Shown in pieces: positions 1,496 through 60,738 of a stretch of 64,000 bases of DNA. This DNA is from Thermoprotei archaeon (GTDB lineage Archaea > Thermoproteota > Thermoprotei > Gearchaeales > WAQG01): the NCBI GenBank assembly GCA_049976445.1, contig JBMFIF010000002.1, positions 5,115 through 69,114 of the forward strand, read 5' to 3'. The first letter of the stretch is position 1; the number at the start of each line of letters is the position of its first letter. Below the pieces are notes generated by a model. That model did no database searches and was not told the origin of the DNA. It saw only the letters and a program-made list of their open reading frames with translations. The translations under genes and the position numbers were made by a program.

Positions 1496-2638
1496 TTAGA
1501 GTGCTTTATGTTGTTCAAACCATTTTTGATAGCGCTCTATCATATCTTTAGTTATGCTTGGCTTTCTGTTTTTGATCACAATTTTAAAATCTTCCATCGT
1601 AATGCTTCTAGGCTCATTTCTGTTATTATGTTCAAAGAATTCTTCGATAACCTTTATGTGAGCATCTCTACACACATCTAGAATATCGCTAGCTGAGTAA
1701 CCCTCAGTCATTTTAGCTAACTCCTCAAGATCTATGGAAGGGTCTAGTTTAAGTTTTGATGTATAGAATTTAAATAACTCAATCCTAGACTTAAAATCTG
1801 GAGGAGGTACTAGTATTCTTTTTTGGAATCGTCTTATAAAAGCTTCATCTAACATCCAAGGTTTATTAGTAGTTCCGATAACAAATATGAGCCGATCTCT
1901 ATCTTTTTCCATTAATCCATCCATTTCTTTGAGTAGTTGTGTGCGCATTCTAGTCTCACCACCAACTTCCTGAAAATGTATTGATGCTAACGCGTCGACC
2001 TCATCTATAAGAATTATTACTGGCTTGTTCTGTGATTCTAGTCTCCTTGCTTCTTTGAATACTCTAGCAATATTTTTTTCTGATTCGCCAAGCCATTTTG
2101 ACATAACATTAGAACTATCAATAAGCATTACTATAGCGTTAATTTCATTTGCAACAGCTGCCATTAACATAGTCTTACCACAACCAGGTGGACCAAAGAG
2201 AAGAATACCCCTTGGCCAACCCAACGGAAAAAGATCACGTCTCTTTATTGGATACACTATTGAATGAATTATTGCTCTCTTTGCATCTTCAAGACCGATT
2301 ATATCCTCCCATCTAATATTCGGCCTGCTCCCCAAGATATACTCTGCATCAATGTTAGATCTTTCCTTTTCACTACTATAATAATAGTTACCAATTTCTT
2401 CTGGTTGATCTTCTAATAATTTTTCAAGCTCTTCGACTTTATTTCTATACATCATTATGTAACGTGCATAGTTCCTATTCATTATGCTATCTGGATATAA
2501 CTCAATTAATTTCGATAGTGCATCTATAGCTCTTCTATAATATCTAATTGCTTCACTATATTGTTTGTTATTTTCATATTGGATAGCTTTAGTGGCATTT
2601 TCCCGTGCATAATCTAACAGTTCTTTACTCGCATACAT
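1496..2638 (-). CDS. cdvC: Vps4-like AAA+ ATPase CdvC (N-terminal MIT domain + AAA domain)
   Basis: N-terminal helical MIT-like region, Walker A GPPGCGKT, Walker B ILIDEVD, 380 aa, immediately downstream of an ESCRT-III gene. Confidence 0.9.
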   Translation of the reverse strand: MYASKELLDYARENATKAIQYENNKQYSEAIRYYRRAIDALSKLIELYPDSIMNRNYARYIMMYRNKVEELEKLLEDQPEEIGNYYYSSEKERSNIDAEYILGSRPNIRWEDIIGLEDAKRAIIHSIVYPIKRRDLFPLGWPRGILLFGPPGCGKTMLMAAVANEINAIVMLIDSSNVMSKWLGESEKNIARVFKEARRLESQNKPVIILIDEVDALASIHFQEVGGETRMRTQLLKEMDGLMEKDRDRLIFVIGTTNKPWMLDEAFIRRFQKRILVPPPDFKSRIELFKFYTSKLKLDPSIDLEELAKMTEGYSASDILDVCRDAHIKVIEEFFEHNNRNEPRSITMEDFKIVIKNRKPSITKDMIERYQKWFEQHKAL

Positions 2639-2662
2639 TTGCTATCTACTCCTTCAGGTGAT

Positions 2663-3511
2663 TTACTCAGGTTTCAACTTACCGGCACGACTTAAACTGT
2701 CTATTGCCCTCCTTACATCATCAGGAGAAACGCCTAAATATCTAGCACAGTCCATTACATTAAGCTCACCATTATGTTCTAAAACCCACAAATAAACTTT
2801 ATCTTCCAGAGAGAGAAGTTTCTCAGTTCTCACGTTTATAACTTTATTTTGGGTACTTGAACTTTTATCAGACCTTGAAAGCGGGCCCTCTCCTATACTA
2901 ATAGACTCAGCAACCTTTTGAACTTTATCGGTAATCTTCTCTTTAGAAGCTGTAGGAGGTTCAGGTAATAAAGACCTTTCTTTTATCATAGTACCTGCAA
3001 CTGCAGCGGCTTCTTTCAGGATCTTATTCAGATCTGCATCACTTGTATCTAAGGGTAATGTTTCAAATGTATCTGGATATTTTGCACCTAACTGTTCAAG
3101 TACAGCGTTTGATAAGACATTAAGATCGTTTTCAAGTTCTGGTGCGATTTGTGGTATTACAGTACGAACATCGCTTATAAGACCTTGTAATGAGGAAAGT
3201 AGACTAGCAGCATCACCTAACTCAATAATTGTCTCAAGTCGTAACAGTAGTTGCTCTAATGAAATACTTGCACTTTCAACAGATTTAACTAGCTTCCTTA
3301 ATTCAGCTACCTCATTAGCATATATTGTAGCATATTGAGCATTTCCTGATGCTTGAGCTGTTACAACCTTGTCAAACATCTCTTTCTCTTTTTTCCTCAA
3401 CCTGTATTTGGCTAATTCTAAACGTGAAACATAACTTCTAAGTTTTATTATAGTATCATTAATTATATCTTTAAGATCACGCCTTCTTTTTAAAAAATTT
3501 ATTCTAACCAT
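2663..3511 (-). CDS. cdvB: ESCRT-III (Snf7-family) protein CdvB with C-terminal winged-helix domain
   Basis: Snf7-like helical hairpin (YANEVAELRKLVK...), acidic linker and C-terminal wH-like segment (MDCARYLGVSPDDVRRAIDSLSRAGKL). Positioned 24 bp upstream of cdvC. Confidence 0.8.
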   Translation of the reverse strand: MVRINFLKRRRDLKDIINDTIIKLRSYVSRLELAKYRLRKKEKEMFDKVVTAQASGNAQYATIYANEVAELRKLVKSVESASISLEQLLLRLETIIELGDAASLLSSLQGLISDVRTVIPQIAPELENDLNVLSNAVLEQLGAKYPDTFETLPLDTSDADLNKILKEAAAVAGTMIKERSLLPEPPTASKEKITDKVQKVAESISIGEGPLSRSDKSSSTQNKVINVRTEKLLSLEDKVYLWVLEHNGELNVMDCARYLGVSPDDVRRAIDSLSRAGKLKPE

Positions 3512-3635
3512 GATGAATCAGCTCCTTCCCCATAATTAGGGGAAATAAACGAAGAAAAAGTGAGAAAAAATGATTGTTAATAAAAAAGAAAAAATGATAT
3601 GAAAATAAAAAATTATTTAGGCTATTTATATCATC

Positions 3636-3666
3636 CGCCGCTGAGGCATGTTCATAGCCTGCGGCG
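3636..3666 (-). terminator. GC hairpin (CGCCGC-19 nt-GCGGCG) followed on the minus strand by a T-run
   Basis: 6-bp GC stem located 21 bp after the stop of the ESCRT-III paralog, followed by a T-rich tract in transcript sense. Confidence 0.3.
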
Positions 3667-3686
3667 TCCATATTATGCACCTAGTT

Positions 3687-4325
3687 TTATGTAGTTGAGG
3701 GGCCTTTCTCTTTTTCTGGACTTGGAAGCTCTGAAAACTCTTTGCTTCTACTTTCAGCAACAGCCTGTGCTTCTTTGAGTATTTTTTCAGCTTCTTCACT
3801 CTGTGGACCGAAGGCTCCAAAGTGAACGCCTGAGATCTCTCCAGCTTCAGTGAGTACAGATGTTAGTGCTTCGCCTATGTCGCCTAGTTCTCTCTCAGCT
3901 TCAGGTAATATGCCTATTAATTGTCTCTTAACAGCGTTCACAACACCTATTGCAGGTTCGATTGCAGCAACAACATCACCTATCTCTTTAATCGTACCAA
4001 GTCTTAATATTACGGATTCTAGTGCTATCTTACTCTGAAGTACTACTTTGGCAACTTTTCTTACTCCAGCTACTTCGTTAGCATACATGTATGCACGATC
4101 AGAATCATTCTTTATGTACGCGTTAACCAATTGCTCGAAAAGTCTGCGATCTCGCTCTTGTAAACGGTGATAAAGTTGGTCGAGTTTCATAGTTTGAGTT
4201 TCAAGTTTTCTTGTAACTTGGTCGATTTTATTCTTTAACGGTGGTGATGGATATACTGCATCCCTTATTCTTCCCGAAAGGGGCTCTTTCGGCTCCCTTT
4301 CCCATCTTCTTGCGAAGTTTGCCAT
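3687..4325 (-). CDS. ESCRT-III (CdvB-family) paralog lacking the winged-helix domain
   Basis: 212 aa, same Snf7 core pattern as the neighbouring CdvB (YANEVAGVRKVAKVV...LRLGTIKEIGD) with an acidic C-terminus. It occupies the position where cdvA sits in Sulfolobales. Confidence 0.7.
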   Translation of the reverse strand: MANFARRWEREPKEPLSGRIRDAVYPSPPLKNKIDQVTRKLETQTMKLDQLYHRLQERDRRLFEQLVNAYIKNDSDRAYMYANEVAGVRKVAKVVLQSKIALESVILRLGTIKEIGDVVAAIEPAIGVVNAVKRQLIGILPEAERELGDIGEALTSVLTEAGEISGVHFGAFGPQSEEAEKILKEAQAVAESRSKEFSELPSPEKEKGPSTT

Positions 4326-10226: not shown

Positions 10227-12443
<2,217 letters not shown>

Positions 12444-12476
12444 AAGTATTCTATTTCATTTTATTTAGAAATTATG

Positions 12477-12680
12477 TGCTTTGTTGCATAATTCGTGCAT
12501 GATTTTGTGGAGCGTTTCACACATTCCCCCAAATTTCATGATACTTACTGATGTGGTTTTATGTATGCTAGTTAGGAGTACTCATTAAAATTGTGAGAAA
12601 ACATCATCAAACTCTCAACACACAAGAATCCTATACATAAAAAACACATCAAAAACACATCAGAATTATGCAACAAAGCA
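12477..12680. mobile_element. MITE-like element: 18-bp perfect terminal inverted repeats (TGCTTTGTTGCATAATTC) around about 168 bp of non-coding sequence, flanked by AAATTAT direct repeats
   Basis: IR arms at 12477-12494 and 12663-12680. AAATTAT lies at 12469-12475 and 12681-12687. The interior contains a tandem AAAACACATCA. Confidence 0.4.
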
Positions 12681-12818
12681 AAATTATAAAAAGAATTTCG
12701 TAGAACTTAGTTTGTGAAAATATTCTTAGATAGCAAAATTTTAATATGCTTATCCTGACCTTATTATCATTTTATTATATCTTAAAAATATTTAAGTAGC
12801 GCACCATATTAGTTATCG

Positions 12819-14201
12819 TTGGTGAGGATATTGGATGTTTATGGTAAGAAGCGAAAACGGGTTGTGATAATGGGTGCTGCAGGTCGAGATTTTCATAATT
12901 ATAATATTCTTTATCGTAATAATACAGATTACGAAGTTGTTGCGTTTACTGCAACACAGATACCGGGCATTGCTGGTCGTAAATATCCACCTGAATTAGC
13001 TGGCCCACTTTATCCTCAAGGAATACCTATTATGAGCGAAAATGAATTATCTCAAATAATAAAAAAGTATAATGTTGACGAAGCTGTATTTTCGTACAGT
13101 GATGTGCTTTATAATGACATAATGCATAAATCTTCAATAGTGTTGAGTTCCGGAGCGAACTTTAAGCTGATAGCTCCAGAAAAAACCATGATAAAGTCGA
13201 ATAAACCTGTTATAGCAGTTACTGCTTCGCGTACTGGTGCTGGAAAAAGTACAGTGTCTCGTAAGCTTGTCTCGCTGTTTAAGGAAGAAGGAATACGTAT
13301 TGTAGTTGTGAGACATCCTATGCCTTATGGAGACCTTTTAAATAGTGTTGTTATAAGACTTGAAAAGCTTGAAGATTTAGATAGATTAAATCTAACAATA
13401 GAAGAGAGGGAGGAGTTTGAACATTACATGAAAATGGGTATTGTAGCATATGAAGGTGTTGATTATGAAAAAATACTTAAGAACGCTGAAAGCGAGGCTG
13501 ACATAATTATTTGGGATGGAGGAAATAATGATACACCATTTTATAAGCCAGATCTTTACATAACAGTGGTCGACCCTACCAGACCAGGGCATGAAACGGG
13601 CTCGTATCCTGGAGAAATAAATGTTATGATGGCTGATTTAATAGTAATCAGTAAGATTAATACTGCAAAACCTGATGATGTAGATACTGTAGAGAAAAAT
13701 GTGCGTAAGCTTAATCCTAAGGCTACTATAGTTAAAGCAAAATTTGAAATTTCGGTTGACAACCCTCAAATGATAAAAGGTAAGAAAGTTGTAGTTGTTG
13801 AGGATGGGCCTTCTGTAACGCATGGTCACATGCCCTTTGGAGCTGGTTACATTGCTGCAAAACAATATGGGGCTTCAGAAATTGTTGATCCTAAACCATA
13901 TGCACAAGGCATATTTAAAGAAATCTATGAAATGTATAAACATACAGCCAATGTAGTACCAACAATAGGTTATGGTGCAGAACAAATGAAACAGTTACAA
14001 GAATTCATTAATAAAATACCTGGGGATACAGTAATATTGGGGTCGCCATCAGATATAAGCCGATATCTCAAGTTAAATAAGCCTGTTGTTCATGTAAAAT
14101 ATGAGATGGTTGATGTAGGAGAACCAAACTTCAGCTCTATAATAAAACAATGGATAGCTAAAAAAATTAAGAAAGCAAAATTGATAGCTTCTCAGTCATG
14201 A
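12819..14201 (+). CDS. P-loop protein, possibly cyclic 2,3-diphosphoglycerate synthetase family
   Basis: 460 aa; N-terminal GAAGRDFHNYN-type segment and internal P-loop ASRTGAGKST. Length and layout resemble cDPG synthetase, but the family assignment is from memory only. Confidence 0.35.
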   Translation: MVRILDVYGKKRKRVVIMGAAGRDFHNYNILYRNNTDYEVVAFTATQIPGIAGRKYPPELAGPLYPQGIPIMSENELSQIIKKYNVDEAVFSYSDVLYNDIMHKSSIVLSSGANFKLIAPEKTMIKSNKPVIAVTASRTGAGKSTVSRKLVSLFKEEGIRIVVVRHPMPYGDLLNSVVIRLEKLEDLDRLNLTIEEREEFEHYMKMGIVAYEGVDYEKILKNAESEADIIIWDGGNNDTPFYKPDLYITVVDPTRPGHETGSYPGEINVMMADLIVISKINTAKPDDVDTVEKNVRKLNPKATIVKAKFEISVDNPQMIKGKKVVVVEDGPSVTHGHMPFGAGYIAAKQYGASEIVDPKPYAQGIFKEIYEMYKHTANVVPTIGYGAEQMKQLQEFINKIPGDTVILGSPSDISRYLKLNKPVVHVKYEMVDVGEPNFSSIIKQWIAKKIKKAKLIASQS

Positions 14202-54729: not shown

Positions 54730-55842
54730 ATGGAGTTGTATTATGGAACACCTGAAGAAGCCGGATTAAATAAGGTACGATTAGATAAGATTCATGAGTT
54801 TATGAAAAAATACGTTAATGATGCCTTTCCAGGTGCTGTAATACTTATTGCGCGTAAAAGTGTAATTGCATTTCATGAAGCATATGGCAGCTCACAGATT
54901 ATACCAGTAAAAAGAGAAATGACAAGGGAGACAATATTTGATCTAGCATCTCTTACTAAACCTCTAGCAACATCAATAATAACTATGAGACTAGTTGAAG
55001 ATGGTCTTATAAATCTAAGACAAAAAATTTCAACAATATTTGATGAAATAGGGAAAGATGAAATAAAGCGCGAAATTACATTATGGCATTTGCTCACTCA
55101 CACATCTGGGTTACCTGCATGGGAACCTTTTTACAAAGGCTTTAAAGACAAAAAAGAAATAATTAAAGCTGCACTTAGCGCATTTCCTTCAAGCAAACCC
55201 GGTGAGAAATATACATATAGTGATCTAGGCTATATTATTTTAACTGGTATTGCAGAAGAAGTTTCTGGTAAAACATTTGACAAATTATTCGAAGAATATG
55301 TAGCATCACCATTAAGCCTTAAAGATACAATGTTTAATCCACCGGATTATTTAAAATCCCGCATAGCAGCTACAGAATTATGCGAATGGAGAGGAGAAGT
55401 TTTAGTTGGTTCTGTTCATGATGAGAATGCATATGCAATGGGTGGTGTAAGCGGTCATGCTGGACTTTTCTCAACAGCATTGGATATCGCTAAGATAGCA
55501 CAAATGATGCTTAACGGTGGAATCTATGGATCAAAAGAAATCTTATCTAGATCTTCCGTTCAGATTATGATAAAAAATCATGTTAAAAATTTAGGTGCTG
55601 GTTATGGTTTAGGGTGGATGATAAATAATGCCCCCAATGGAACATCAGCTGGAGATCTGTTTTCTAAAGAATCTTTTGGACATACTGGCTTTACAGGAAC
55701 ATCTCTTTGGGTTGATCCGGAAAAGGAGTTAATAGCAGTTTTACTTACTAATAGAATACATCCCTCAAGACAAAATACAAAACTTATAGAACTAAGACCA
55801 AAAATACATAACCTGATAGCATCAACTTTAACAAGATATTAA
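54730..55842 (+). CDS. beta-lactamase-fold serine hydrolase (class C / D-aminopeptidase / esterase family)
   Basis: SLTK (SxxK), YSD and HTGFTG (K/HTG) motifs; 370 aa; 8 bp after the GH3 gene. Confidence 0.7.
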   Translation: MELYYGTPEEAGLNKVRLDKIHEFMKKYVNDAFPGAVILIARKSVIAFHEAYGSSQIIPVKREMTRETIFDLASLTKPLATSIITMRLVEDGLINLRQKISTIFDEIGKDEIKREITLWHLLTHTSGLPAWEPFYKGFKDKKEIIKAALSAFPSSKPGEKYTYSDLGYIILTGIAEEVSGKTFDKLFEEYVASPLSLKDTMFNPPDYLKSRIAATELCEWRGEVLVGSVHDENAYAMGGVSGHAGLFSTALDIAKIAQMMLNGGIYGSKEILSRSSVQIMIKNHVKNLGAGYGLGWMINNAPNGTSAGDLFSKESFGHTGFTGTSLWVDPEKELIAVLLTNRIHPSRQNTKLIELRPKIHNLIASTLTRY

Positions 55843-55870
55843 TTTCTGAAATTCACATACTTTCTGTTGG

Positions 55871-55960
55871 TAGTTGAATCATTTTAGGATAAATTTTATA
55901 CTGTTTTAAGAAATGATGGGTATGAATTGGTTCATACTAATCTGGTTCCACTACCGTTCT
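55871..55960 (+). repeat. about 90-bp direct repeat, copy 1
   Basis: GGTAGTTGAATCATTTTAGGATAAATTTTATACT...GTATGAATTGGTTCATAC...; about 85% identical to 60521-60610. Confidence 0.6.
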
Positions 55961-56204
55961 AGAGGGAAAAGAAATCAAATGCATAAGAGGACCCTACAAT
56001 CATATCAGGAGGAAGCTCCAGAAGAAGGGACTCCTAAAAAAGGATAGAGGAGGCATGAGCCCTCTTGAACTGGCAAATGAGGTTGGAGGATAAAGCCCCC
56101 AGCTGAACATCAGAAGCTCAGCCTTTTAGGAGTAGCTCATATAATCGACATTATTGTGTATAATGAATCTCAGTACTTAAGCTCACCAATTTTTCTATAA
56201 TTAT

Positions 56205-56576
56205 TTAATGTTGTTCATTATTGAGAAGGAATTCAATGTATTCTTTTATTACTGTAGCATTATTTCTTTCTTTGTCTTTGGTTGCATAAAGTAATGTTAT
56301 GCTATTTTTTTGTTTTATTATCTCGATTAATTTTTGTAATGAAGGATTATTTTCTAATTCTTTAATATACCTTTTTTTAAATTCATTCCATTTAGCGGGA
56401 TCATGAGAAAACCATTTCCTTAAATCATTTGAAGGTGCAATATCTCTAAGCCATAAATCTATTTTTGATTTCTTTTTGCTTAATCCTCTAGGCCATAGTC
56501 TATCTACTAAAATTCTGTAACCATCATCTTCAGATGGTTCTTCGTAAATTCTTTTTATTTTAATCATTTTTCTCAT
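56205..56576 (-). CDS. DUF488 family protein
   Basis: 123 aa; YRILVDRLWPRGLSK...LWLRDIAPS pattern typical of DUF488. Confidence 0.55.
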   Translation of the reverse strand: MRKMIKIKRIYEEPSEDDGYRILVDRLWPRGLSKKKSKIDLWLRDIAPSNDLRKWFSHDPAKWNEFKKRYIKELENNPSLQKLIEIIKQKNSITLLYATKDKERNNATVIKEYIEFLLNNEQH

Positions 56577-56711
56577 TAAAAAAGTGAATTCTCATCTAAA
56601 TATTTTTGACGGGCATTAAATAAAAATCATCATTAACCATTATTTGAGTGTTAAATCAGATAATATTAAAATTGATTAGTTAGATAAGTGAGTTTTGAGA
56701 TTTTTATTAGA

Positions 56712-57284
56712 TTATTGTACTTTAAATAAAACATCTATGATCTTTTGTATATATTCATAAGGTTGCTCTACGCGTTCAGCAAAATCCATAGAAATAACAT
56801 AATAAAATAAATTTCCAAGGAATATTTTTAAATAAAACTCATCGATCATTTTTCCAGTTAGGTTCTGTATTTTTTCTTTTAATTTGGTATAGTTTGAGTG
56901 ATGAATTTTTTTGAAGGTTTCTTTAATTTCACTGTATCTATTTGCTATTCCTATGGAATAAAGGAAAAGTTTTCTTTCAATGGGGTCATTGTATTTTAGA
57001 ATATATTTTAATGCTAGATCATTAAGCATTTCTTTAACATCATTATAATGTTTTTCTATTACATTGTTTAATACTTCAACTGGTGAAACACTGATAGCAA
57101 TCTCTTTGATTAATTGCTCTTTGCTTGTAAAATATGTATAAAATGTGCCTTTGGAGAGTTTAACTTTTTCCATTATTTCATCTACTGTAGTCAAGTCAAA
57201 ACCTTTTTCAGCGAATATTTGACGTGCAGCCATGATGATTAATTTCTTTTTTTCGTTATTGCTATTCCTCATAATCCTACACAT
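56712..57284 (-). CDS. TetR/AcrR-family transcriptional regulator
   Basis: N-terminal HTH (IMAARQIFAEKGFDLTTVDEIMEKVKLSKGTFYTYF); 190 aa; divergent from the radical-SAM genes. Confidence 0.75.
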   Translation of the reverse strand: MCRIMRNSNNEKKKLIIMAARQIFAEKGFDLTTVDEIMEKVKLSKGTFYTYFTSKEQLIKEIAISVSPVEVLNNVIEKHYNDVKEMLNDLALKYILKYNDPIERKLFLYSIGIANRYSEIKETFKKIHHSNYTKLKEKIQNLTGKMIDEFYLKIFLGNLFYYVISMDFAERVEQPYEYIQKIIDVLFKVQ

Positions 57285-57372
57285 AATTTAGTTCTGCATA
57301 GTTATATACTTTTTGGCTAACTAGTCAGTCAAAAATATAAGTATCTTTAAAGAAATATATAAGTGAGAAATT

Positions 57373-58896
57373 ATGGGTAATACTAATGGTTCGAATTCAA
57401 TGGTTAATGCTATAGAATCATTTAAGGGTATTGTAGATAATCCATTGAGTAAGTATTTATTAAGATATTTAACTGGTTATTGTGAGAAGGATCATGAGAA
57501 TCGGTTAGAGGTTGCTCTTGAACTTTACTTAGGAATTAGGAAAGATGCTTGTTTTTCTTGTCGATCAGCTTCTAAGGTTGTTAGTTACATTGTTAAAAAA
57601 GGTGCAAAGAGTTTTGGAGTTAGTGAGGATCAATTAAAAAGTACTATGAAAGATTCGTATTGGAGAAGAGGTCTTATTAGTGTACTTAAAGGTATAGCAT
57701 TTTTTGGTGTTCGCAAGCCGTTTGTACCAGGGGCTCCGTTTCAAGTCGTATGGAATATAACCAAAGCGTGTAATATGAACTGTTTGCATTGTTATGAAAG
57801 CGCTGGCATAAAGGGTAATGATGAACTCACTTCTGAACAAATTCATCAGGGAATAGATATACTTGCTGATGCTGGCGTAACTATCTTAGCGTTTTCTGGA
57901 GGTGAGCCAACAATACATCCTAATATAGTAGAATTCATTAGTCATGCTCACAATAGGGGAATGTACGTAGCTATTGCTACTAATGGTTATGTTTTAGCCA
58001 ATAAGTATGTTATAAGAAAATTAAAGAGTGCAGGTTTAGGATATGTACAGATTAGTCTAGATGGTCTGAATCCAAACACTCATGACTCATTTAGAAGGGT
58101 GAAGGGTGCTTGGGAACATGCTGTTCGTGCAATAAAAAATAGTATTGAGGAAGGATTATTTGTTGAAGTAGCTACTACTGTTACAAAATACAATATTAAT
58201 GAAATACCTGAAATGATTAAGTTTGTCAGAAATCTTAAAGCTAATTGGTTTATGTTATATAATTTTGTCCCTACAGGGCGTGGGAAAGAGATTATAGAAA
58301 GTGATCTTTCACCGAGAGAACGTTTTGATCTTTTAAAATTAGCCTATTCAGAAACAGGTGATGGTGGTTTGCAAGTGCTTTCCACAGCTCCTCAGTATGC
58401 TGCTGTTGCGCAAATGTTTAATAAGAATGGTAAGAATATAATACCAACTCATTTCTATAATCCTGAATATAATGATCCAAAAATACGTCAGTTAGCAGAA
58501 TTTATTGGTGGTTGTGGTGCTGGGAGGTTTTATATATCGATCGAGCCAAATGGAGACATATATCCATGCGTATTCTTTCCACATGTAGATGAAGTAAAAA
58601 TCGGTAATTTGTTAAAAGATGATTTCGAAAAACTTTGGAGGGAACATGAGTTATTATGGAAATTACGAAATAAGGATATTTTAGAAGGATTCTGTGGTAA
58701 ATGTGCGTTTAGATATACATGTGGGGGGTGTCGAGCTCGTGCATATAATTATTTTGGCAACGTATTAGCACCTGACCCAGGATGCATTTTTAATTCTAAA
58801 GAATGGAATAAATTAAGGTCTGAATTGCTTATTAAATATCATGCAGAGGAAACACCAGCAGGTAATATTCTCATAAGAATAAATGATACACCATGA
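57373..58896 (+). CDS. radical SAM enzyme with C-terminal SPASM domain and a Cys-bearing N-terminal extension (candidate tetraether-synthase / GDGT-MAS-like)
   Basis: CNMNCLHCY (Cx3Cx2C) at about residue 133; C-terminal CGAG...PC...CGKC...CGGC SPASM cysteines; N-terminal region with GYC/DAC/FSC; 507 aa. Confidence 0.75.
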
Positions 58897-60341
58897 CGCG
58901 CATTATTCTCATAAATCCTATAGATAGAACTCAGATCACTAATAGGCTTGGACTAAAAGCACCACCACTAAATTTAATGTACCTTGCGTCTGCGCTTGAA
59001 AAAGCTGGATTCTATGTTAAAATTATAGATGCTAATCTTTATAATATACTACCGCATCAAATAGCAAGAGTAATAAAAGGGTTTAGACCTGATATTATTG
59101 GTTTAACAGCTGCAACCGCTACCATAAAAACTGCTTTACATTATGTATCAGAAATCAAAAAGGCTATATCAAACGTATTTACCATAATAGGTGGACCTCA
59201 TGTTACTTTTCTTCCAACAGAAACATTGAATATGTCAAAAGATTTAGATGCGGTAGTTATAGGTGAAGGTGAAGAAACCATCGTCAAGATAGCAGAATCT
59301 TATGAAAAAAGTAATCCGGAATGGCTTTCTAACATAAGAGGAGTGGCTTATAGGATAAAAAATCATGATTCAAGTAAAATAAAAATCACACCCCCAAGGC
59401 CTTTTATTAAAAACTTAGATTTAATACCATTCCCGGCTCGTCATTTAGTACCGTTTAACGAATATAAGCTGTACAACAAGGATACACCCATAGGTAGTAT
59501 GATTACAAGTAGGGGTTGCGTTTTTGCATGTAATTATTGTTCATCCTCGCACCTGATGGGAAGAATGTTTCGAGCACGCAGTTCAAAAAATGTAGTTGAT
59601 GAAATCGAAGAATTAGTATACAAATACAATGTTGATACAATCGAATTTATTGATGATATTTTCACTCTAAACAAAAAACGTGCATTAGAGATTGCTAAGG
59701 AAATACGCTCTAGAAAAATTGATATAAACTTTGTTGCATCATCTAGAGTTGATACTATAAACCGTGAATTATTAACAGAATTAAAAAAAGCTGGGCTTTC
59801 AACAATGTATTATGGTGTAGAATCAGGTTCAGAACGCGTTTTAAAATTAATGAATAAAAGAATCACGTTATCACAAGCGGAAAAAGCCATAAATGAAACT
59901 AAAAACATTGGTGTTAGTACACTAGCATCATTCATACTAGGTTATCCAGGTGAAACTCTTAATGAGATGTGGGCCACTATAAAATTCTCTATAAAACTTA
60001 ACCCAGATTATGCACAATTCTCCATACTCACACCATATCCTGGGACACCAATATACTATGAACTTAAACAAAAAGGATTAATCGCTACAGAAGATTGGGA
60101 TAAATACACAGTATTAGACCCAGTTATAGAATATGAAAAATTAGGATTAAGCAAACACATAGTCTCAAAAATGCTCAGAGAAGCATATTTAAGATTTTAT
60201 CTAAGACCAAGATACTTATTAAAACGAATAACAATGTTAAAGGCTCTAATATATACAATGATCAATACTTATATCTTACCTATTTTTCAACACAAAGACT
60301 CATTAGGTTGGTATAAGGACCTAAGCACTCATCACGATTGA
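58893..60341 (+). CDS. B12-binding-domain radical SAM enzyme (class B)
   Basis: N-terminal Rossmann-like cobalamin-binding region; CVFACNYC (Cx3Cx2C); 482 aa; start overlaps the upstream radical-SAM stop by 4 bp. Confidence 0.75.
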
Positions 60342-60520
60342 AGACAGAAGATTTTCACTCCTAAAATGCTCACCAATCTGTTGTCACTCCTTTAAACCTT
60401 CATTATAGAAAACTGTTCAAAAATATTACTGATAGAAATTTAATGCTTTTTTACATAATTTTTGTCCCTTAATCTTCATAAAGTGATGATGAATCTTTCA
60501 TCGTTGAGCTTATTTATTGG

Positions 60521-60610
60521 GTAGTCGAATCATTTTAGGATAAATTTTATACTATCTTAAGAAAAGATGAGTATGGATTGGTTCATACTAACCTGACTCC
60601 ACCACATATT
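60521..60610 (+). repeat. about 90-bp direct repeat, copy 2
   Basis: See copy 1. The internal hairpin GTATGGATTGGTTCATAC differs from copy 1 by A to G, which keeps pairing as a G-U wobble. Confidence 0.6.
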
Positions 60611-60738
60611 TATCAAGTAGCATTTTTCAAACTACAACACACACAATTATGTAGCAAAGCAAAACTTAATTAATCTTTATAAATTGTTTACGATATCTAT
60701 TTATTCATAAAATGATAAATTCTCTTGAGGTGTTTTAA

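Follow-up and report, generated by a model that had tools for sequence, protein, structure and literature searches.

Two copies of a short repeat beside radical-SAM genes

The window, which is the whole 64-kb stretch that was analysed, contains a block of genes encoding a DUF488 protein, a TetR regulator, a SPASM radical SAM (rSAM) protein and a B12-binding rSAM protein. On either side of these genes, as the initial annotation had noted, lies one copy of a short repeat. Copy 1 is situated 26 nt past the stop codon of a beta-lactamase-family gene, in the spacer that this gene shares with the convergent DUF488 gene, and copy 2 is situated 178 nt past the stop codon of the B12-rSAM gene and 131 nt ahead of the TTG start of a Metallophos gene. 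A repeat search of the 64-kb window matched 55869-55954 to 60520-60605 on the same strand (88% identity over 86 nt; BLAST E ~1e-22 within the window; 4651 nt between the two starts). Alignment with a third locus, found in a metagenome contig, gave the unit sharp borders, with similarity vanishing at once outside GGTAG...CCAC. The ~90-bp direct repeats annotated initially at 55871-55960 and 60521-60610, with ~85% identity, correspond to this feature, their ends having been placed a little loosely. We refer to the repeat as family A. Copies 1 and 2 are its only members in the window, and that they should be 4.65 kb apart and otherwise absent from 64 kb is somewhat unexpected under random scatter. 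The features discussed below are as follows.

55869..55956, + strand: copy 1 of the ~88-nt repeat, with sharp borders in the three-locus alignment
60520..60607, + strand: copy 2 of the ~88-nt repeat, with sharp borders in the three-locus alignment
2030-2117 of metagenome contig L011, - strand: copy 3, 93% identical to copy 1 and 91% to copy 2
55869..55880, + strand: 5' terminal inverted repeat (TIR) of copy 1, GGTAGTTGAATC, read from the sequence
60520-60531, + strand: 5' TIR of copy 2, GGTAGTCGAATC, read from the sequence
55944..55955, + strand: 3' TIR of copy 1, GGTTCCACTACC (reverse complement GGTAGTGGAACC)
55876..55902 and 60527-60553, + strand: invariant 27-nt block GAATCATTTTAGGATAAATTTTATACT, the same in four of four distinct sequences
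55920..55937, + strand: 18-nt palindrome or hairpin of copy 1, GTATGAATTGGTTCATAC, with a 7-bp stem and a 4-nt loop
60571-60588, + strand: palindrome of copy 2, GTATGGATTGGTTCATAC, in the window sequence, with an A to G change (G-U)
60444..60661, no strand assigned: family-B MITE unit of 218 bp that encloses copy 2, with 18-bp TIRs TGCTTTTTTACATAATT and AATTATGTAGCAAAGCA

The ends of the repeat are inverted with respect to each other. Matches over the 12-bp TIRs number 10 in copy 1, 9 in copy 3 and 8 in copy 2, and 11 in the three-copy consensus (GATTCCACTACC); by a binomial estimate, at least 11 of 12 at fixed ends has a chance probability of <1e-5. The terminal helix (helix 1) was 90.9% paired in the named-structure evaluation.

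Between these ends, conservation follows a clear layout: an invariant block with a TATA-like sequence, a variable spacer, a conserved hairpin and a variable tail. The 27-mer GAATCATTTTAGGATAAATTTTATACT is shared exactly by copies 1 and 2, against a chance expectation of 0, and the probability of an invariant run of that length is ~0.02-0.045. Only one of the 16 variable columns falls in the first 34 nt (p ~0.002, for a split chosen post hoc). Within the block is the archaeal TATA-like sequence AAATTTTATAC, and the ATG within the palindrome follows the first T of TTTTATAC at a distance of 28 nt. Based on this geometry and on comparison with conserved promoters, the TATA-like box may act as a promoter element. 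The palindrome itself was found in both window copies, as annotated initially, and nowhere else in the window at up to 3 mismatches. In copy 3 its loop reads TTGA in place of TTGG.

Copy 2 is nested in a second repeat, family B, and copy 1 is not. The family-B unit is flanked by AAATTTAA and AAACTTAA, which match at 7 of 8 positions as an 8-bp target duplication, and homology with a sister genome restarts immediately to its right. Family B is a bona fide MITE. An apparent 63-nt length difference in one spacer (L101) is no real variant, since Ns fill a gap in the scaffold there, at the border of the family-B unit.

Distribution of family A and of the radical-SAM genes

Family A occupies at least three unrelated intergenic loci in at least two genomes, and the known loci number three. 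The neighbors of copy 3 are a gene for a DAO-type FAD oxidoreductase and genes for hypothetical membrane proteins; the cassette, TetR and rSAM genes are absent nearby. Copies 1 and 2 are only 88% alike, each being nearer to copy 3 (93% and 91%, respectively). Exact 20- to 22-mers present in every copy served as queries. A 22-mer had no match in 185,579 GTDB species genomes, and neither this 22-mer nor a 20-mer from the hairpin matched any viral contig. The 20-mer had four matches in metagenome contigs, of which the one in L011 is a true copy and those in L012-L014 are due to chance. An nhmmer profile of the element found no additional copies in 1.57 Mb of fetched loci, and a "distant" blastn search with copy 1 and the adjoining GC-rich island found nothing similar in plasmids or phages. 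Relatives of the beta-lactamase protein in the species genomes are at most 51% identical, and the lineage is therefore missing among the species representatives. Absence from the metagenomes is weak evidence because that collection evidently lacks the JGI contig of this locus (L002). The initial annotation had suggested a search for further copies, and named as refuting outcomes many dispersed copies unrelated to the cassette (a generic repeat), or neither transcription nor structural covariation. In kind, the analysis gave such an outcome, with an unrelated copy and no covariation, although the extra loci number one, not many. Assemblers break contigs at repeats, and two contigs from other assemblies (L097 and L104) stop within the element. 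Contig ends of this kind hint at more copies beyond the known three.

In all five assemblies of the species, wherever the contigs reach, both copies are present and flank the cassette, and no solo or empty site was seen among them. In a sister genome, GCA_038881895.1, the TetR-rSAM-rSAM genes are followed directly by the same Metallophos-UbiA-Rce1-ADH genes as in the window, with the repeat absent (L003). This genome is without the element at the spacers equivalent to those of copy 2 (L003) and copy 3 (L098), which are too diverged for a precise empty site to be aligned; the gene-proximal promoters at both spacers are conserved there despite the missing element. Relatives at 85-87% identity have TetR-rSAM-rSAM in another neighborhood, again with the repeat absent, and their conserved core does not include DUF488. 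A 26-bp palindrome, TTTTTGNCTAACTAGTCAGTCAAAAA, located at 57310-57335 in the divergent spacer between the TetR and rSAM genes, is kept in every relative, including those free of the repeat. The conserved unit is TetR-rSAM-rSAM, which has a palindromic, operator-like site to itself.

A probable MITE-like family and competing explanations

We consider family A to be probably a new, low-copy MITE-like repeat family of this uncultivated, AT-rich archaeon. The unit is short (~88 nt, below 500 bp) and non-coding, the only ORF through it being an orphan, and it has TIRs (GGTAGTTGAATC versus GGTTCCACTACC). The changes seen in its stems are one-sided or pair-breaking, as decaying DNA repeats would show. 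Copies 1 and 2 would have arrived by separate events in spacers that lie only by chance to either side of DUF488-TetR-rSAM-rSAM, and their movement, present or past, would have relied on a transposase supplied in trans. No target-site duplication common to the three copies was found at any border offset for k = 2-9; copy 2 alone has TATTTAT on both sides, at offsets unfit for copies 1 and 3. Old MITEs may have lost their target duplications (PMC10969869). Neither the window nor ~1.5 Mb of fetched loci yielded an autonomous element or a transposase bearing these TIRs, and the TIR had no match in the IS605/TnpB copies of L003. The uneven spread of substitutions, with its invariant 5' third, fits functional constraint better than it fits a purely selfish, decaying element. 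The TATA-like box in that third might be poised to fire outward through the palindrome, which would make the copies candidate portable promoters; alternatively, a protein may bind the palindrome.

A different explanation, that the copies are paralogous sRNA genes in which the 5' third is a BRE/TATA promoter and the hairpin and tail form the RNA, appears unlikely. The succession of invariant TATA block, variable spacer, conserved hairpin and variable tail suits such a gene; the hairpin stem is retained in every copy, the hairpin differing only by a G-U and by a single base of the loop, and the + strand of copy 1 folds with z = -2.9. However, copy 2 folds best as the other strand (z = -4.5), the predicted start site coincides with the hairpin's 5' arm or falls within it, a conserved oligo-T terminator is missing inside the unit, and this reading accounts neither for the TIRs nor for the 25 conserved nt that precede the TATA box. 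Two-sided changes affected none of the 30 predicted pairs, with a covariation term of -0.19 kcal/mol (four distinct sequences, with low power). Likewise, the 18 pairs of the named structure had no two-sided change, and four cells were broken in the terminal stem (four distinct sequences). The A to G stem change in copy 2 had been taken initially to suggest an RNA-level structure. It does give a G-U pair on the + strand, but no stem has a compensatory change and so a single G-U proves nothing. Rfam yielded no match at the gathering threshold over the whole window, and for both spacers and copy 3 no family rose above noise (E >= 0.18, far under gathering scores). An RNA structure is thus unsupported, and the sRNA gene proposed initially keeps only the low probability given above.

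A variant of this explanation is that the repeat might encode an L7Ae-binding K-turn RNA, which copy 3 brings to mind with GAA-AUGAUGA-[hairpin]-UAAC-CUGA-UUC. Its C box (AUGAUGA) and D box (CUGA) are perfect and lie on either side of the hairpin, closed by a stem of 3 bp, as in archaeal box C/D and K-turn RNAs. In two of the three copies, however, the boxes are degenerate (AUGAUGG and CUGG in copy 1, AAGAUGA in copy 2). Box C/D sRNAs have C, D', C' and D boxes with two guides of ~12 nt. The 22 nt between the C- and D-like motifs, the only such motifs present, is too little for D'/C' boxes and guides, both of which are absent, and no curated model matched; the initial annotation had also judged this spacing too short for a C/D-box sRNA.

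It is somewhat less probable that the repeat is a portable archaeal expression module. Its TATA box and an ATG 28 nt further on, inside a 5' hairpin or operator, would generate a new transcript wherever the unit is inserted, and selection for promoter activity would hold the 5' third invariant. At copy 1 the module would drive an adjoining stretch of ~200 nt that is GC-rich (~50%) and hypervariable between strains, and would yield a structured sRNA or, alternatively, a de novo microprotein of 41-44 aa, antisense-convergent with DUF488. Two haplotypes and a recombinant of the two exist for 55903-56155. Folding of the GC-rich island with alifold on both strands, in two haplotypes, did not separate the strands. 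The island was also considered as a remnant of a beta-lactamase pseudogene, and this candidate was rejected (blastx E = 0.69).

We regard it as improbable that the palindrome is an operator for a dimeric transcription factor, such as the TetR of the cassette, with one such site to either side of the cassette. Operators bound by helix-turn-helix dimers typically have this 7-4-7 palindromic form, and the TetR gene does lie between copies 1 and 2. Against this, the divergent TetR/rSAM spacer has the different palindrome described above, conserved in all relatives, whereas that of the repeat is missing from the TetR-rSAM-rSAM relatives; copy 3 has no TetR or rSAM neighbor, and a similarity of 88 nt with sharp ends and TIRs is much more than an operator would need. 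Downstream of copies 2 and 3, the genes have conserved promoters of their own and keep their promoter-proximal sequence in element-free relatives, which makes the initially suggested role as a cis-regulatory element for the flanking transcription units unlikely as well.

Mobilization of the 4.65-kb block as a single unit, whether with the repeats as att sites or target duplications or as a MITE-flanked composite, is highly improbable. MITE-flanked cassettes are known in bacteria (PMC10969869), and copies 1 and 2 are in direct orientation about a functionally coherent block. The right junction, from rSAM to Metallophos, is ancestral, being present in L003 without repeats, and the core shared by relatives omits DUF488. 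The nesting of copy 2, but not copy 1, in another MITE argues against paired block boundaries. For att sites, the identity of 88%, with each copy closer to copy 3, is further contrary evidence; no integrase, transposase or recombinase gene was found in the block, and no tRNA or tmRNA as an att target. The initial suggestion of a mobilized cassette is contradicted by these data. The check that it named, for the cassette's presence or absence between a single repeat copy, showed no empty or solo form among the five species assemblies. Because another copy lies at an unrelated locus, the repeats neither bound the radical-SAM cassette nor serve as its dedicated regulator, and they are not att sites.

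Equally improbable is a small protein gene, perhaps for a RiPP precursor that the radical SAM enzymes would act on, beginning in copy 1 as an ORF of 44 aa (or 41 aa if leaderless) with copy 2 as a decayed paralogue: although JGI called the ORF (55913-56047) as a gene and its ATG at 55922 has the 28-nt distance to the TATA-like box that the leaderless rSAM gene has, a search of 5.8 billion proteins matched the same locus only, the frame stops early in copies 2 (MDWFILT-stop) and 3 (MN-stop), all three between-strain substitutions within it change the amino acid, and relatives with the same rSAM pair lack it. We therefore rejected the ORF as a conserved or precursor peptide.

Relation to known MITEs

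The MITE-like assignment of family A agrees with the published description of prokaryotic MITEs in size, location between genes, AT-richness, TIRs and a putative promoter (PMC10969869). Compared by description, family A resembles the archaeal families SM1-SM4 in being shorter than 500 bp, non-coding, AT-rich, intergenic and dispersed, in having TIRs and a stem-loop, and in nesting in other repeats. SM1-SM4 are present in 25-44 copies per genome in Saccharolobus (Sulfolobus) solfataricus (PMC10969869). Family A differs from them in its three loci, in having no detectable target duplication or partner IS, and in a 5' third far better conserved than its 3' TIR.

The Correia repeat-enclosed elements of Neisseria and other promoter-bearing MITEs are likewise short and bounded by TIRs. 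These elements contain outward promoter motifs together with a protein-binding site or an RNA hairpin, and are found up- or downstream of genes (PMC10969869); in family A the invariant TATA-like box and the palindrome are the comparable parts. Correia elements are bacterial, with sigma-70 promoters, IHF sites, a TA duplication and >100 copies, whereas family A is of low copy number and its promoter is a motif match to the archaeal TATA box.

For this archaeon our analysis is mostly a correction, in that neither the limits of a mobile radical-SAM or RiPP-like island nor the regulation of one should be deduced from the repeats. Two small families, A (~88 bp) and B (~200 bp, with an 8-bp target duplication), are added to a catalogue of archaeal MITE-like elements that is sparse outside the Sulfolobales and haloarchaea, and these repeats break metagenome assemblies of the lineage. 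Should the TATA-like block prove to be active as a promoter, family A would represent an archaeal counterpart to the promoter-bearing MITEs of bacteria.

A short dispersed repeat at three loci

Repeat searches of the window recovered an 86-nt direct repeat (55869-55954 and 60520-60605; 88% identity, spacing 4651 nt, BLAST E ~1e-22) on either side of a DUF488-TetR-radical SAM (rSAM) cassette. This agrees with the initial annotation, which had also placed the palindrome and the intervening genes correctly. The two copies have an exact 27-mer in common, where none is expected by chance, and no other palindrome match was found in the 64 kb with up to three mismatches tolerated. A third copy, c3, was found on an ENA metagenome contig (L011).

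55869-55956: c1, with the 18-nt palindrome GTATGAATTGGTTCATAC at 55920-55937
60520-60607: c2, with an A-to-G variant of the palindrome at 60571-60588
L011 2030-2117, minus strand: c3
Between c1 and c2: DUF488 (-), TetR (-), SPASM rSAM (+) and B12-binding rSAM (+) genes
Outside the block: GH3 and beta-lactamase-family genes upstream, a metallophosphoesterase (Metallophos) gene downstream

In an alignment of the three loci the unit starts with GGTAG and ends at about CCACYRMC, and all similarity is lost immediately outside. Its termini are inverted repeats, GGTAGTTGAATC and GGTTCCACTACC, that match at 10/12 positions in c1, 9/12 in c3 and 8/12 in c2 (11/12 with the consensus 3' end, GATTCCACTACC). 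The interior runs from an AT-rich block that is invariant and contains a TATA-like AAATTTTATAC, through a variable spacer, to the palindrome and then a tail that again varies.

The search for more copies that had been proposed thus yielded one extra locus, which has no cassette genes as neighbors; c3 lies between a divergent DAO-type FAD oxidoreductase gene and genes for hypothetical membrane proteins, and is closer to c1 (93%) and c2 (91%) than these are to each other. The c3 locus is also present in GCA_023255895.1, whose contig begins inside the repeat. A 22-mer of the repeat had no match among 185,579 species representatives, a set that does not include the lineage of the window (best beta-lactamase relative, 51% identical). 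The window has a G+C content of 33.8%, and its neighboring genes for topoisomerase VI A and B and a KH/PNO1 protein, with PurP in relatives, indicate an archaeal genome.

We consider it probable, with moderate confidence, that the repeats represent a new low-copy MITE-like dispersed repeat. Traits of MITEs as published (PMC10969869) that the repeat has are its size, non-coding nature, AT-rich intergenic location, terminal inverted repeats (TIRs) and nesting in another repeat; dispersal, as seen at three loci, and absence from the sister-genome spacers, which are too diverged for an exact empty site to be aligned, may be added to these. No target-site duplication common to the three copies was seen, no partner IS with the TIRs of the repeat in the window or the other loci examined, and no high copy number in scans of species genomes, metagenomes and viral contigs, and for this reason we use the label "MITE-like".

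Promoter, RNA and coding readings

A functional reading, in which the repeat acts as a portable promoter or the copies form a small family of sRNAs, is kept alive by the uneven conservation along the unit: only one of the 16 variable columns (of 88) falls in the first 34, and an invariant run of 27 has p ~0.02-0.045 under random placement. In addition, TTTTATAC starts 28 nt ahead of an ATG inside the palindrome, the same spacing as in the leaderless genes of this lineage, which makes an outward promoter plausible as judged by motif and geometry alone. The repeat is not, however, the native promoter of the genes that follow c2 and c3, since promoter-proximal sequence of both Metallophos (3' of c2) and a 116-aa gene (3' of c3) is conserved in the sister genome, which has no repeat. 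The suggested cis-regulatory role for the flanking units is therefore unlikely.

For the TetR-SPASM rSAM-B12 rSAM unit, the probable TetR operator is predicted elsewhere, at a 26-bp palindrome, TTTTTGNCTAACTAGTCAGTCAAAAA (TTTTTGGCTAACT/AGTCAGTCAAAAA; 57310-57335), between the divergent TetR and rSAM genes. This palindrome is unrelated to that of the repeat. It hardly varies among all the relatives at 85-90% protein identity, and TATA-like boxes lie on either side of it, 24-27 nt from the TetR and rSAM start codons. This three-gene unit (57373-60341) is conserved in at least three different neighborhoods (L003-L010, L095, L096), with homologues at ~55-65% identity in Thermoplasmata and methanogens; no precursor-peptide ORF was seen beside it.

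As to RNA, folding extends over the full unit; c1 folds on the plus strand with z = -2.9 and c2 folds better on the minus strand (z = -4.5). RNAalifold of four distinct sequences gave 30 pairs with a covariation term of -0.19 kcal/mol; none of these pairs, nor any of the 18 of the terminal stem and hairpin, was changed on both sides. The single G-U pair in the hairpin, from which an RNA-level structure had been proposed, is its one one-sided change and carries no weight because half of stem transitions still pair on a given strand. In the terminal stem, pairing is broken in four cells, and of the changes in its 3' arm two still pair on the plus strand, two on the minus strand and two on neither, a pattern with the look of neutral decay in a DNA inverted repeat. 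Rfam gave no match at gathering thresholds and noise alone at permissive ones. Around the c3 hairpin the C motif (AUGAUGA) and the D motif (CUGA) are both perfect; a canonical C/D sRNA is ruled out by the 22-nt spacing, as had been anticipated, by the lack of D'/C' boxes and by degenerate boxes in c1 and c2.

A 44-aa ORF starts in c1 (55913-56047). It is an orphan, a search of 5.8 billion proteins having recovered the same locus alone; its frame stops after 7 codons in c2 and 2 in c3, and all three strain substitutions within it alter the amino acid.

Relation of the repeats to the cassette

The B12-rSAM protein has exact matches in the MAG GCA_049973215.1 (L001) and a JGI metagenome (L002); the next-closest genome, labelled Thermoprotei archaeon, is at 90% protein identity. 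In the sister genome GCA_038881895.1 (L003), TetR-rSAM-rSAM-Metallophos-UbiA-Rce1-ADH-HTH are ordered as in the window, genes upstream of TetR differ, and neither a c1-like nor a c2-like repeat was found at the locus. Thus, the rSAM/Metallophos junction is older than c2. Relatives at 85-87% identity (L004-L010, L095, L096) have the TetR-rSAM-rSAM core with a cation-efflux gene on one side and an HMP gene on the other, also with no repeat found, which places DUF488 outside the conserved unit. All assemblies of the window's species (L100-L104) have c1, and those with contigs reaching far enough (L100-L102) have the cassette and c2 as well. On these comparisons the repeats are not tied to the cassette. 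An att or target duplication of a mobilised cassette is essentially refuted by the repeat-less synteny, the unrelated c3 locus and the lack of any solo or empty form in L100-L104.

Insertions and a hypervariable patch

A second repeat family, family B, encloses c2 in one of its units.

60444-60661: family B unit, 218 bp, enclosing c2; termini match the TIRs of the next element
12477-12680: family B element, 204 bp, with 18-bp perfect TIRs (TGCTTTGTTGCATAATTC)
L011 7-209 and L003 5408-5597: other members

The first unit is flanked by 8-bp direct repeats AAATTTAA and AAACTTAA, and the second by AAATTATG and AAATTATA, each pair matching at 7/8 positions. Members are ~200 bp with varying internal sequence; L011 ends in one copy, and in the assembly L101 a scaffold gap falls at the edge of another. 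Judged by these sequence features, family B is a bona fide MITE. Immediately to the right of the 218-bp unit, the window is again homologous to the sister genome. In L003 the rSAM/Metallophos spacer is occupied by an IS605/TnpB insertion instead, which marks this spacer as a hot spot that has received insertions more than once. The sister genome has several IS605-type TnpB copies (11669-12975; 1-396; 2465-3814), each with a small HTH_17/MerR-like ORF.

A GC-rich island (55960-56160) lies in the non-coding spacer that separates c1 from the DUF488 stop, with 50.8% G+C at 56005-56124 (z ~+3). It may represent a structured RNA that is not annotated. A hairpin at 56049-56065 differs between strains by a double change of G:C to A:U, through which it still pairs, by a G-U that becomes G:C and by a loop altered from AUGA to GUGA; two haplotypes are too few to settle its strand or structure. 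Rfam gave no match to the island, the best hit being a weak C/D-box sR46 (E = 0.011, minus strand, 56116-56158). A 24-nt match (83%) of 56090-56113 (ATAAAGCCCCCAGCTGAACATCAG) to 55625-55648 (ATAATGCCCCCAATGGAACATCAG) in the 3' part of the beta-lactamase gene is probably due to chance; blastx (E = 0.69) gives no support for a beta-lactamase pseudogene remnant.

L001, an assembly of the same species, is 99.83% identical to the window over 15.1 kb, and 14 of the 26 differences, nearly all transitions, fall within 253 nt (55903-56155), a divergence of ~5.5% compared to ~0.08% elsewhere. This patch comprises the c1 spacer and the GC-rich island, and begins directly where the invariant 34-nt block of c1 ends. 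L103 combines the window and L001 haplotypes by recombination, and in L104 the spacer takes a third form. The patch may have arisen by gene conversion, with an unseen paralogous copy as donor, or by import of an allele. The hypervariable patch may perhaps be more interesting than the repeats at this locus.
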